Below, one piece after another: positions 21,569 to 53,487 of a stretch of DNA of 64,000 bases (positions are counted from its first letter, which is position 1; the number at the start of each line of letters is the position of its first letter). Under the pieces are notes generated by a model. The model was not told where the DNA came from. It worked only from the letters and a program-made list of their open reading frames with translations, and ran no database searches. This DNA is from Eledone cirrhosa (Eukaryota). The stretch is from positions 26,908,001 through 26,972,000 of the forward strand of contig OZ024741.1 in the NCBI GenBank assembly GCA_964016885.1. Direction: 5' to 3'. The position numbers and the translations under genes were made by a program.

Positions 21569-22392
21569 ATATATATATAAACAACTATCTGGTTGTGGAA
21601 CCAACCAACCAACCAGAAATTTATAAATTTGTAAATTTATAAATATATATTAAATTAAATTGAAGTGAAAGCAACTGGTGCGTGTGTTTCTTATTGGCAA
21701 CATGACCCTCCCAAAGTATAACAATATATATATATATATTTATACATATATATATATTTATACATATATATTATATATATATATATTTATACATATATAT
21801 ATATATTTATACATATATATATATATATATATTATACATTATATAATATATATATATTTATACTATATATAATACATATTATATATATATATATATATAT
21901 ATATATATATGTATTTATACATATATAATATATATATATATATTTATACATATATATATATATATACATATATATATATATATATATATTTATAACATAT
22001 ATATATATATAAAAACAAATAAACGAAACGAAATTAAATTTCGTTTCGTTTGTAACTCACTTTTGTATGACTGACGCTTGGATTACTCACAGTAAAATAA
22101 CCAGTGAAAGACTTGGTACATCTACATATGTATATTCATATGTATACTAGTATTTCAGTATGCATATGTAGATGTACATTTTTACTTAATTGTTTAAGCG
22201 TCAGTCATACAAAAGTGAGTTACAAACGAAACGAAATTTAATTTCGTTTCGTTATTTGTTTTTATCGTCTCCGTTGAACCGGTACGTACTCACACTCTAT
22301 GCAAATTAGTCTGCCCACTACTAATTTTCATAGAAAAAAGCATATAACGATATGTGCTTTTACGATTCTCCAGATAGGCCGGTAGATAGGTA

Positions 22393-22437
22393 AATATTGC
22401 TGATGAGTTGTAACAACAACGAAACTAGTTCAATATT
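22393..22437 (+). ncRNA. Minimal type I hammerhead (family A)
   Basis: AATATTG-CTGATGA-GTTG-taacaa-CAAC-GAAA-CTAG-TT-CAATATT. Confidence 0.92.
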
Positions 22438-22856
22438 CTTTGTCTGGCTTTCTGGTGAATAGAGGAAAGGTGTTTCCTAGAAAACCAGTATGACTCTAAA
22501 AACCGGTTGTCTGTGTGTTTTACATACAGAGTAGCTGGATTACTCACAGTAAAGTAACCAGTGAAAGACTTGGTACATCTACATATGTATACGTGTGTGT
22601 ATTCATATGCATACTAGTATTTCAGTATGCATATGTAGATGTACATTTTTAACTTAATTGTTTAAGCGTCAGTCATACAAAAGTGAGTTACAAACGAAAC
22701 GAAATTTAATTCGTTTCGTTATTTGTTTTATCGTCTCCGTTGAACCGGTACGTACTCACACTCTATGCAAATTAGTCTGCCCACTACTAATTTTCATAGA
22801 AAAAGCATATAACGATATGTGCTTTACGATTCTCCAGAAAGGCCGGTAGATAGGTA

Positions 22857-22901
22857 AATATTGCTGATGAGTTGTAACAACAAAGAAACTAGTTCAATAT
22901 T
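22857..22901 (+). ncRNA. Family A hammerhead with C11.1 changed to A
   Basis: Same motif, with CAAA instead of CAAC. Confidence 0.75.
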
Positions 22902-23178
22902 CCTTGTCTGGCTTTCTGGAGAATAGAGGAAAGGTGTTTCCTCGAAAACCAGTATGATTCTAAAAACCGGTTTGTCTGTGTGTTTACATACAGAATAGCT
23001 GGATTACTCACAGTAAAGTAACCAGTGAAAGACTTGGTACATCTACATATGTATACGTGTGTGTATTCATATGCATACTAGTATTCAGTCTGGTTTAACT
23101 GCCAGCTTAACCTCTTCAAATGCAAGTCGGTGTTATAACGGTATGTCGAATCTATTTATCTATAAAACTGTTATATTG

Positions 23179-23244
23179 TATTTTGTCTGAGGAAGGCATA
23201 GCATATTGTTAATATGATATCCCCGAAATATATATAATGAAATA
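23179..23244 (+). ncRNA. pLTR hammerhead (family C)
   Basis: TATTTTGT-CTGAGGA-AGGCATA..TATCCCC-GAAA-TATATA-TA-ATGAAATA. Confidence 0.75.
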
Positions 23245-49269: not shown

Positions 49270-50975
49270 ATAAAGATAGTTATAATAGTTCCATATATTT
49301 TATTATACGTATTTCGAATACAAAATCATCCTGCGACAGATGTCTTCAGATAAAAAATAAGGTACAATGATAGGAGGCATAATAGCACTTGTTTATAGGA
49401 TAGTGCTAAGTCTACATATGACAGAAATATATGTGTTAATACTATAGTAAGAAATAGATAGGAAAAGAGAAGAAAAGGAAAGAAGAGAAAAAAGGAAAAA
49501 GAAAAAGAAGAAAAAAAGCAAGAAAAGACAGAGAGATCAGGAACGCTGTCAAATTGAACGGTTAGAAAATAAATTGATGAGGTATATGTGCGAATATTAT
49601 AGAAAGTATTCAAATATTAGAGGTCTAAATATAGAAACTGTATATTATTATATATTTTACTAAAAATTGGTTTAAGAAGTGTAAAAATATATTAATAAAA
49701 TAAATATAAGATTTTTATAAAATAAAATAAAAGTAGTCTATGTCAAAGTTAATAATTTCTAGTAAAAATAAATATGTGGGGTATACTATTTAATTTTTAT
49801 TTTATATCATCAAGTAAATAAAGGAAATTGCTAGAAGGATTTATAAACGTAGAAAACACAGAGAAAATCTATTATAATATGACGTCATCTTTTGTTTACA
49901 AAATCTACGAAGGTTTGAGTGAACATCTAAGGCTATAGAAAAGAAGATCAAAGGCTTAATATATAATGAGAAAACCAAAATAATACATTGTAGAATATAA
50001 TGAAAGGTGTGTAAAGATGACCGTGACTCGTGGAATATGTTATAGGACATCAGCTATATACTCTGTGAAAGGTCTTGTAGGACTTATGATTACAAAGTCC
50101 AAATAAATCGGTTCTTCGATTTATTATTGTGTTGAAATTCGAGATAATGGTAAATTTTTCAGCTAGACAAATTGAAAACACTAGATATGGAAGCATTGGA
50201 GTATGGATAAGCGTTGTAGATTTTACGCCAAGAAATTTCGTAATTTATGTTTTTGTCTTTTTAAGGACTAAATAAGTTCTGAGAGTGCGGTGCTGGTCCT
50301 TTTAAGTGGAGATTTAAATGTAGGAGAATGATTATAGAATCTTGCTTTTAAGGAGGTGGAAGTAGAGCCAATGTAGGTATAGGTATTGGTACTAGTTACC
50401 ACTTTACATTCGTATACTAGGTTTTTATCAAGACAGAAATTACTAAGAAGACAATTAGTTCTAATAGGGCAGTTGCATTTACGATTAAGATTATTTACAG
50501 AGTTATTGGCAAGTGGCCCAGGATTAATTATATTAGCATCAGGAGTGGTGGAATTAACTAAAGGAGGTGCTAAAGTTTCTAGATTTACATTACTATTTGA
50601 TGCATTCCTCAAAGTTACGTTTGACGTCGTATTTATACTTGTGTTATTTTGCCTACTGTTTACATTGACATCGGGCCTTTTAGTGTTATTACTATGACTC
50701 TCATGGTTGGATGCATATGAGTTATTATTTAATATTTTAGAATTATGTCTTGAGATAATTTTTGAAAAATTCGAAGTAGTAGAATACGAGAATTTAATAG
50801 TATGCCTATTGAAAATCTTGCTATATATAATTGAAGGAGGGAAGCTGTTATGTAAAGCCCTAAAATATAATTTAGGGGTATTATTAATAACGGAAAGAGA
50901 GAAGGGAGCGTTGTACCAAAGGATATTTTTACATCTAGGTCTCCTCCTTTTGTTAGCAGTATGATTATTACTAAC
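49270..50975 (-). mobile_element. 5'-truncated Penelope-like element (GIY-YIG remnant ~50040-50975; hammerhead 49298-49355)
   Basis: CNCPIRTNCLL..C..LVY..YIGST..KARFYNH. Reverse complement TTTTAT-CTGAAGA..GAAA-TACGTA-TA-ATAAAA. Confidence 0.82.
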
Positions 50976-51519
50976 TACTACGCATATATATATATTGCTG
51001 AGATTTCTCTGTTGTTATTCTGAGTTGTATAGCCTGCCATTGATAATGCAAACATAAGTGTGTGCGTGTGTGTGTGTATATATATATATATATATATATA
51101 ATATAAGATCAAAATATGGTTAAAGGAGTTCCATATATTTTATTATGCGCATTTCAAAAACAAACATCATCAAGCAATAATATTTGTGTTTTCATCAGAT
51201 AAAACAGGAGAACATGATATGAAGGCTAAAAAACACTTGTTGATAGTGCAGTTTTAAATCAACATATGAAAAGTGGTTTTAGATTGATGTGTGATATTGG
51301 GAAAAATATTTTATTTAGAGAGGGGGGGAAAAGGATGAGAAGGGAAGGAGATGAGAGGGAGAGATGGGTGATAGAGAGAAAGAGATAGTTTTTATAACTG
51401 AGAGGAGATATATTTTTTTTATATAGAGGGGTTGAAAACCGTTGGAAGATACTGTATAAATTAAAAATTTTGAAAATTAACGAAGGGGGGATATGTGCGA
51501 GGAAAAAATATTAAATACT

Positions 51520-52188
51520 AAATCTCTTCCTTCCAATATTGAATTTCATAATAACAGTAATAGTACTCCCGACGTCATTGTAAACCCTAGGCTAACTTCT
51601 GTAAACCCAAATACAACGTCAAACACAACTTCGCTAAATGTTCATAATCCAACTCTAAATCAAGAAACTATTATTCCTATTATTCCTATCGCAAACTACT
51701 TCTCCAATCCAATTCCTTCTATAGATAACACTAGATCACTCATTAATAATCTCTCTAATTGCAACTGCCGCATTAAAAATAAATGTCCTCTCAACAACCA
51801 TTGCCTCGATAAAAACTTAATTTATGAATGTAAAATTATAACTAGCACCAATTCCTTCACCTATTTTGGCTCCACTTCCACCTCTTTTAAAGCTCGTCTC
51901 TATAATCATCATTCATCTTTCAAATACAAACTTAAAAGAACTAACACTGCTCTCTCAGAACTCATATGGTCCTTAAAAGACAAAAACATTAAATATAGCA
52001 TCTTTTGGAAAAAGATTTCTTCTGCATCCTCATACTTGAACAGCTCTCTATCTAAAATCTGTAATCTCTGCCTAAATGAAAAATTTACCATTATCTCTAA
52101 CCTAGAATCCATAATAAATAGACGCTCAGATTTGTTTTCTATCTGCCTCCATAAATTCCATAGAACTTTTCACAAAGTATACAGTTAA
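51520..52188 (+). pseudogene. PLE GIY-YIG endonuclease domain (open frame, 5'-truncated)
   Basis: CNCRIKNKCPLNNHC..LIY..YFGST..FKARLYNH..TALS..W..CNLCLNEK..NRR..CLH. Confidence 0.9.
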
Positions 52189-53167
52189 TATTCAATTCTT
52201 TATCAATTTAGAATCTTTTCTCAAAGGCACATATACATACACCTCTTTAAAATATACCCATCTACCTTACTTTAAAGGGCATTATACACTCTATAATACT
52301 CGTTTACTCATTACCCTCATTCTATCTTCTCGTAAAACAATAACATTTGTTTTTGACATTTTGAATATTCATCCGCAATCATTATTATTTTTTCTCTCTA
52401 TCATAAATCTTTTTAATCTCAATTTCATCCTTAATTTATTATTATTTTTTTCTCCCCATCAACGAACTCATTATTAATACATATGAATTCAATATACAAA
52501 CTTTAACTTCACATTATTTTTCTCAAATCCTTCTACACATAAACCTTAACATTTCTCTCTTTGCTAATTTTGAAATTGCCACAATACATACATTTCTTCT
52601 TTTGACGTTAGAATATTCACCCACAATTATTATTTTTTCTCTCTATCTTCATACATAATTTCCCTTCGTTAATTTTTAAATTCCTTTAATTTATACATTA
52701 TCTTCCAACGGTTCCCAACCTCTCTATATTAAAACAATATATCTTTTTCTCAGTTATAAAAACTATCTCTTTCTCTCTATCACCCATCTCTCCCTCTCCA
52801 CCTTCACTCTCATCTCCTCCCCCTTTTTTTCATCCTTCCCCCCCCCCTCCCTAAATAAAATATTTTTTCCTCGCACATATCCCCCCTTCGTTAATTTTCA
52901 AAATTTTTAATTTATACAGTATCTTCCAACGGTTTTCAACCCCTCTATATAAAAAAAATATATCTCCTCTCAGTTATAAAAACTATCTCTTTCTCTCTAT
53001 CACCCATCTCTCCCTCTCATCTCCTTCCCTTCTCATCCTTTCCCCCCCCCTCTCTAAATAAAATATTTTTCCCAATATAACACATCAATCTAAAACCACT
53101 TTTCATATGTTGATTTAAAACTGCACTATCAACAAGTGTTTTTTAGCCTTCATATCATGTTCTCCTG

Positions 53168-53234
53168 TTTTATCTGATGAAAACACAAATATTATTGCTT
53201 GATGATGTTTGTTTTTGAAATGCGCATAATAAAA
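53168..53234 (+). ncRNA. pLTR hammerhead; inverted copy at 51138-51204
   Basis: TTTTAT-CTGATGA-AAAC..GTTTTT-GAAA-TGCGCA-TA-ATAAAA. Confidence 0.82.
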
Positions 53235-53487
53235 TATATGGAACTCCTTTAACCATCTTTTGATCTTATATTATGCATACTCCAGTCCCACAAACTGTAG
53301 AGTGCTTCTTATCCGATATCTGCATTGCTTTATTGTACTACAATAAAACTCACCTCCTACATATATATATATATATATATATATATATATATATATATAT
53401 ATATATATATATATAAATGGAAAAAATGAAACGAAATTTCATTTCTCACTCTTAGTACGGCTGTTACTTAAATATAAGTATGTATAC

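Follow-up and report, generated by a model that had tools for sequence, protein, structure and literature searches.

Short non-coding tandem repeats with predicted hammerhead ribozymes in the genome of Eledone cirrhosa end mostly at one of two fixed internal sites, and where an insertion consists of two inverted arms, one arm almost always ends at the first site and the other arm at the second. We describe this for a window of 64,000 nt (assembly GCA_964016885.1, contig OZ024741.1, forward-strand positions 26,908,001 to 26,972,000; window positions below are counted from its first letter) and for related loci throughout this 3.0-Gb animal genome, which is rich in TA repeats. The anatomy of the insertions suggests that a staggered cut made in (TA)n by a Penelope-like reverse transcriptase with a GIY-YIG endonuclease supplies a primer on each strand for cDNA synthesis, which would start at one fixed internal site of the RNA for each arm, a reading to which we assign a probability of about 0.72.

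The families A, B, B' and B'' have non-coding units of 464, 461, 442 and 466 nt, respectively, which form low-GC tandem arrays, those of A- and B-type units reaching about 20 units. A hammerhead core (CUGANGA...GAAA) together with a stem I and a palindromic ACUAGU helix III can be read in the A and B units, and both families are non-LTR (long terminal repeat) retrozymes of about 460 nt with minimal type I hammerheads, predicted to be self-cleaving. Matches of the Rfam family HH9 on A reach 30.9–38.9 bits, below the gathering score of 52, and none was seen on B among the Rfam matches listed (150 of 257). Rfam microRNA matches over the window also stay below their gathering scores and were discarded as TA-repeat noise. 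Minimal hammerheads with this type of palindromic helix III have been described as acting in dimer form (PMC4209133; this and all further statements on published work refer to the accessible parts of the papers cited). A and B' align over both end sites (E 9e-11), so that the base at the first site is homologous between the families. The B'' subfamily comprises at least 5,774 units genome-wide, and nine near-identical units at locus L259, considered as a private haplotype proving a one-monomer circle, were dropped as such since they belong to this subfamily.

All positions within the unit are given relative to the next predicted ribozyme cut. The first site, S1, reads TTAT/CG (the slash marks the end) and lies at −163 in A and −156 in B, and the second, S2, is a zone 60–70 nt upstream of S1, at −213 to −222 in B and in the matching zone of −230 to −238 in A. 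We call the stretch between the two sites the tail. S1 ends in the window stop at TTAT after AATTTCGTTTC, where internal copies continue with CGT, and then run into TA repeat. A preliminary description of the window had listed four such ends, of family A at 22011 and 35361 (both minus) and of family B at 35127 (plus) and 53413/4 (minus), placed about 125–135 nt upstream of the ribozyme core and not at the cleavage site. All four were found, with 135 nt (A) and 126 nt (B) from S1 to the core CTGATGA and 163 and 156 nt to the predicted cut, as was the second B end, CATACTTA followed by TA, at 4113, 46404 and 58645. The ends had been taken as independent insertions and the second type as a matter of separate events, and here the picture changes: S1 and S2 belong together, each serving one arm of an insertion, 53413 (S1) and 58645 (S2) being the two arms of one B' insertion into which an LTR retrotransposon inserted later, and 35361 (S1) having its partner end at 35899 (S2). 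The A- and B-type features of the window are the following.

22011..22079, minus strand: S1 arm of family A insertion 1, 68 nt long, which consists of the tail alone and has its inner end at S2
22079..23092, plus strand: family A insertion 1, opposite arm of 2.2 units, cores at 22400 and 22864, non-standard end at −265
35361..35752, minus strand: family A insertion 2, S1 arm, core at 35690
35751..35899, plus strand: family A insertion 2, S2 arm, end at −235
33115..35127, plus strand: family B array of 4.3 units, single arm with S1 end; cores at 33409, 33874, 34335 (variant) and 34794; variants common to units 1/3 and to units 2/4
4075..4113, plus strand: short B-type fragment with S2 end
45620..46404, plus strand: family B' single arm with S2 end
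53413..53487, minus strand: family B' insertion, outer part of the S1 arm
53488..58392, plus strand: LTR retrotransposon splitting the B' insertion, LTRs at 53488–53777 and 58106–58392
58393..58645: remainder of the B' insertion; the inner S1 part, on the minus strand, was read by eye to about 58477, and the S2 arm follows on the plus strand at 58478–58645

For the genome-wide analysis we used all 38 A loci, 34 different B loci (with three more left out and a duplicate counted a single time) and 29 different B' loci among 30 fetched out of 40, chosen by the best match to the query, which favours young and long copies and does not fix the 3' end. From 177 resolved arm ends 161 lie at S1 or S2 (A 65/69, B 49/60, B' 47/48), the other 16 being found in an internal TA run of B (7) or elsewhere (9), and in none of the three families is there an arm end within 20 nt of the cut. 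Termini spread uniformly or gathered at the cleavage site, the outcome named beforehand as contrary to internal priming, were therefore not what we observed. Pattern counts over the whole genome agree: 934 of 5,774 B'' S1 motifs continue as TA or TT, and at the cut no B-type motif continues as four A/T letters (WWWW) while 11,897 read through. As each monomer offers 30 (A), 64 (B) or 44 (B') sites with at least 3 nt of TA microhomology, the clustering in only two zones is not due to chance and AU richness alone does not choose the site. The earlier idea of priming at AU patches is thus supported for defined internal sites that run into (TA)n, the patch itself being insufficient. Minimum-energy folding predicts a hairpin 5' of S1, separated from it by a few unpaired bases, and a small hairpin that contains or adjoins S2, which we do not take as a structural rule. 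At locus L362 (C1:244149630 region) a 20-nt piece stands three times in tandem at the S1 end before the TA flank, a single case that looks as if priming had restarted at S1 in a telomerase-like reiteration.

Most insertions consist of two arms joined 5' to 5' (head-to-head). The A loci comprise 27 pairs of S1 with S2, four of S1 with another place and seven single arms; the B loci 17 S1+S2 pairs (one being a nested B'' insertion), five of S1 with the internal TA run, four of a standard site with another place and eight single arms; and the B' loci 18 S1+S2 pairs, one of a standard site with another place and ten single arms. The first 25 B'' loci on contig C1 gave 15 S1+S2 pairs, one possible S2+S2 pair, two unresolved loci and seven single arms. 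Including L310, this discovery set holds 78 S1+S2 pairs against one possible same-site pair and no S1+S1 pair (p about 1e-22 for a fair coin). For a hold-out the predictions were written first and 60 further B'' junction loci were then analyzed (junctions 17–76, four rows assigned by BLAST), resulting in 48 S1+S2 pairs, two of S1 with internal TA, eight single arms and two loci reaching beyond the fetched stretch. None of the 50 two-arm loci was S1+S1; S2+S2 pairs cannot show in this set, as its members were chosen by having an S1 end. Both sets together contain 126 S1+S2 pairs, no S1+S1 pair and one possible S2+S2 pair. Single arms end at either site (three at S1 and four at S2 in A). A fixed 3' end, variable 5' truncation, an inverted truncated copy and a tail on one end only are the insertion signature of Penelope-like elements, and it is found here in the A and B families. 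An origin as Helitron or miniature inverted-repeat transposable element (MITE) was rejected in view of the variable inner ends, the duplications of about 10 nt and the Penelope-like anatomy, weighed against the traits of those families.

The target is a pre-existing (TA)n. Impurities of the TA flank are mirrored through target duplication in 12 of 49 pairs (about three of them perhaps spurious), compared to a mean of 3.2 and a maximum of 8 in 2,000 shuffled sets, and in the hold-out in 11 of 44, compared to a mean of 4.8 and a maximum of 9 in 1,500. Hold-out impurities close to the S1 junction were mirrored in six of six cases, all of which fit one stagger of 9–12 nt; no mirrored impurity was seen at L017 and L103. 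The junctions show 2–5 nt of TA microhomology and the inner joints overlap by 1–15 nt in 37 of 49 cases, plus one 90-nt alignment artefact, these overlaps being inflated by BLAST extension. Three loci (L079, L270, L300) are inserted in or beside palindromic, foldback-like host sequence, and at L259, L093, L210 and L027 elements have inserted into the internal or flanking TA runs of each other, giving nested clusters like that of the window.

The same insertion anatomy is shown by autonomous Penelope-like elements of this genome, of which two, P1 and P2, are present in the window as truncated copies, next to a further array family, D.

28211..30650, both arms: truncated copy of the Penelope-like element P2; the minus arm holds the GIY-YIG-type open reading frame (ORF) 29817–30242 and ends at the short site near 28220, the plus arm holds the R1 repeat with a hammerhead at 30454 and ends at the long site near 30648
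44520..44720: terminal repeats of P2 as a pair, the minus one with the short site at 44523, the plus one with the long site near 44716
40944..44474: truncated copy of the Penelope-like element P1; ORF 43222–44205 lies in the minus arm, which ends at 40944, and the inverted plus arm ends near 44470
30898..32924: family D two-arm insertion, unit of about 591 nt, ends at 30898 (minus) and 32924 (plus)
27792..28210, minus strand: family D single arm

The ORFs of P1 and P2 (743–855 aa) carry YRDD, a C-terminal Cys-rich region and YIG/YVG motifs, and both elements have terminal repeats. Atlas neighbours of these ORFs lie at 0.96–0.98, some with GIY-YIG and RVT_1; a Pfam scan and a PDB sequence search of the full ORFs gave nothing relevant, and a related ORF of the window has a GIY-YIG match of E 0.003, under the cut-off. 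P1 and P2 are, by these motifs, Penelope-like elements with a predicted reverse transcriptase and C-terminal GIY-YIG endonuclease, and we take them to be Neptune-like from the C-terminal endonuclease and the pattern of the Cys motif. With 26,488 (P1) and 61,724 (P2) first-look candidates genome-wide, many with long open frames, both appear to be young. All 28 P2 pairs are mixed, with sites at about +55 and +145 after the P2 cut, as are nine of 11 P1 pairs, the others being one long+other and one short+short, and in all ten resolved D pairs the two arms end at different sites. The tail measures about 90 nt in P2 and 166–167 nt in P1 and D, compared to the 60–70 nt of A and B. R1, treated before as a small family of its own, has ends at 26850, about 28220 and 44523 and is the terminal repeat of P2; the D ends noted at 27792 and 32924 are present, to which 30898 adds a second end type.

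D forms the same kind of arrays as A and B, and no hammerhead core was found in its sense strand with up to one mismatch, nor any Rfam ribozyme family at E up to 10. D and P1 are alike in having no recognised hammerhead core, in the spacing of their sites and in a TAACT close after the end sites; D may be mobilised by a P1-like enzyme, a link that BLAST does not find. Terminal units of D repeatedly differ by two bases, which we judged to be an artefact of gap placement. The 3' region of P1 contains internal tandem duplications, of 334 nt twice in the window (41989–42656) and of about 160 or 340 nt at L194, L198, L201 and L209.

The inner (5') ends tell about the template. They are evenly spread around the unit (Rayleigh p 0.84, 65 A ends, none within 5 nt of the cut), and since the length of 102 among 130 arms suffices to cross a cut site, the template is not a linear monomer running from cut to cut. 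We infer a longer template, either a circle or an uncleaved multimer. Eight of 25 short S1 arms but none of 23 short S2 arms measure 45–80 nt, which places the inner end at S2; this comparison was made post hoc in the discovery set, from a table of 65 of the 78 pairs entered by hand with some lengths approximate. In the hold-out nine of 30 short S1 arms fall into the same range (p 5e-4 against a flat spread), eight of them at 57–65 nt. About 30% of the short S1 arms end at S2, as would be expected if both strands were primed on one RNA. Furthermore, rare variants are common to both arms at many loci, among others at L033, L037, L078, L088, L089, L024, L092, L100 and L296, and at C1:268645–268655 kb one variant is carried by each of the 19 units that cover its position, on the one arm as on the other, and by only four other units of the genome.

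A circular RNA is a plausible template, slightly favoured by the variant common to those 19 units and by the array structure: unit length is uniform within a locus and differs between loci, the units of L308 follow the order a-b-a-a-b-a, and those of L080 and of the window B array (33115..35127) alternate. Neutral or contrary to a circle are step patterns (L292), mixed unit orders (L291), the D arrays without hammerhead and the finding that for PAc, the Poseidon element of Anolis, the main substrate in vitro is unprocessed RNA (Frangieh 2024 PMC11167929). Rolling-circle reverse transcription, put forward in the preliminary description, is thus supported only in part, by 5' ends that ignore the cut and by some arrays, and not by D, which makes the same arrays. 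As an observation of its own, variants recur every two or three units in the window array as well as at L080, L086, L256, L308 and L291, as rereading of dimer or trimer templates would give.

From these data a model can be proposed in which a protein dimer would nick both target strands about 9–12 nt apart, one 3'-OH would pair by 2–5 nt with the RNA at S1 and the other at S2, and the two cDNA ends would join by microhomology. Both DNA ends would usually load on one RNA, and because of this the copy started at S1 would often stall at the S2 hybrid, leaving tail-only arms, or displace it. The dimer might grip a short structured RNA segment and prime both strands at the segment edges, making two copies of the same, often circular RNA; such fixed-site twin priming, to which we give somewhat less than even odds, would by itself account for the tail, for the inverted repeats and for retrozyme arrays with a non-integer number of units.

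Several observations weigh against priming at one fixed site per arm on a shared RNA. The end classes were assigned by hand, and nine of the 26 B two-arm loci combine a standard site with another place, the internal TA run in five of them. Same-site use is possible at L300, where the arms lie about 250 unrelated nt apart, and is seen in the short+short P1 pair at L192, which lies within a larger inverted duplication. Three of 26 short S2 arms of the hold-out also measure 45–80 nt, so that the contrast between the sites is weaker than in the discovery set. The arms of two A loci (L061, L309) differ in haplotype, and the two arms of a locus frequently show their units out of register; attempts to place both arms in a single register of a linear RNA did not succeed consistently, and one linear RNA is for these reasons not the rule. 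In the study of PAc the strands did not differ in their start site and priming was described as non-homologous (PMC11167929). Finally, BLAST among the reference ends of A, B, D, P1 and P2 gave no link beyond AT-rich noise, and as the A and B ends share no sequence with the P1 and P2 terminal repeats, the enzyme that would mobilise A and B is assumed.

An unlikely alternative is a single priming event followed by fold-back self-priming, in which the second arm copies the first cDNA and owes its fixed end to cutting of element DNA by the endonuclease. Both self-priming (Arkhipova 2013 PMC3846280) and endonuclease-mediated tail resolution (Craig 2021 PMC8557442) have been proposed before, would give the same head-to-head anatomy with variants common to both arms, and would suit a few near-palindromic inner joints (L002, L004, L125, L019). 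However, in the same hand-entered table with some approximate lengths, the nesting that fold-back needs would take an additional central deletion in 22 of 65 pairs, and only 5 of the 65 have their inner ends 20 nt or less apart, where chance gives 5.8; tail-only S1 arms, single arms at either site and the two loci with arms of different haplotype do not fit either. We consider it equally improbable that each protomer of an asymmetric dimer uses its own RNA, with shared haplotypes reflecting bursts from one source locus. L061 and L309, the arms out of register and the fact that most S1 arms extend far past S2 would agree with two RNAs, which on the other hand predict neither S1 arms stopping at S2 nor the variant shared by 19 of 19 units and only four others.

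An origin of the ends after insertion (by deletion between AT patches and TA flank or by unequal crossover) or by assembly error is very improbable and already largely refuted. Local amplification has been proposed for retrozymes (bioRxiv 10.64898/2026.07.22.740005) and erosion may account for those B arm ends (seven of 60) that lie in the internal TA run, but such events cannot yield one site per arm, intact target duplications or the use of two out of 30–64 patches. Modest support against an assembly artefact comes from contigs of three public runs (X1, X5, X6), which have loose ends at 33734, just before S1, T-rich and then TA- or A-rich like a B' end.

Other elements share the window. A family with a unit of 312–313 nt (10392–11481 and 3–97), adjoining an assembly gap, shows at 10684, 10997 and 11310 minimal hammerhead cores with a palindromic ACGCGT loop. 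A third Penelope-like family (50054–53274) has GIY-YIG-type ORFs at 50268–51014 (minus) and 51481–52188 (plus) and inverted repeats with hammerhead-like cores at 51198 and 53174; further hammerhead-like cores lie at 21529, 47647 and 49349. Reverse transcriptase ORFs of the long interspersed nuclear element (LINE) type lie in TA flanks at 5006–8229 and 37727–39646 (Pfam RVT_1, the second also with a weak PHD match).

The published Penelope insertion unit (PMC3846280; PMC8557442) resembles the insertions described here in 5' truncation, an adjacent inverted truncated copy, (TA)n targets, a tail often on one end only and a target duplication of 8–10 bp, and differs in its tails of 30–40 nt. The near-absolute, counted one-end rule, the tail-only arms and the non-coding retrozymes go beyond the accessible parts of these papers, and Craig 2021 (PMC8557442) calls the origin of inverted, tailed Penelope insertions undefined. 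PAc is similar in that two internal starts define the tail, both strands are cut and extended, the target is AT-rich, the hammerhead is dispensable and a dimer is predicted, whereas the pairing per insertion is not reported in the accessible text and the starts lie about 85–92 nt after the cut (calculated from PMC11167929) compared to about 230–305 nt here. Animal non-LTR retrozymes share low-GC tandem units and type I hammerheads, and Penelope helpers with a circular RNA template have been proposed for them (PMC7229834; bioRxiv 10.64898/2026.07.22.740005; circles and Penelope helpers also in PMC4209133). Our units of 442–466 nt are at the upper end of the range of 150–450 bp (Cervera and de la Pena 2020 PMC7229834). 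Retrozymes have been described as descending from Penelope repeats, with the mechanism left open (Li et al. 2026 bioRxiv 10.64898/2026.07.22.740005); neither this preprint nor PMC7229834 reports termini maps or inverted arms in its accessible parts, and those of PMC9977147, PMC8969392 and PMC13282606 hold nothing further on ends. A search of the openly accessible literature brought up neither counts of the pairing nor maps of retrozyme termini.

In the twin priming of L1, an inversion results when both 3' ends of the target serve as primers on a single RNA; one of them anneals at the poly(A) tail, the position of the other varies within the RNA, and the first cDNA stops near the second primer. 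In contrast, both sites are internal and fixed here and the first cDNA usually runs on. Inverted arms, a one-ended tail and two start sites are thus already published for Penelope elements; new are their presence in retrozymes, the near-absolute rule of one site per arm, the tail-only arms and the stagger estimate. Thousands of young copies allowed a counted rule, a stagger of about 9–12 nt, exact start coordinates and a same-RNA signature to be obtained. Copying does not begin at the ribozyme cut, and retrozymes would be tied to the Penelope machinery through mechanism and not through co-occurrence. Together, the pairing rule, the tail-only arms and the stagger estimate favour fixed-site twin priming.

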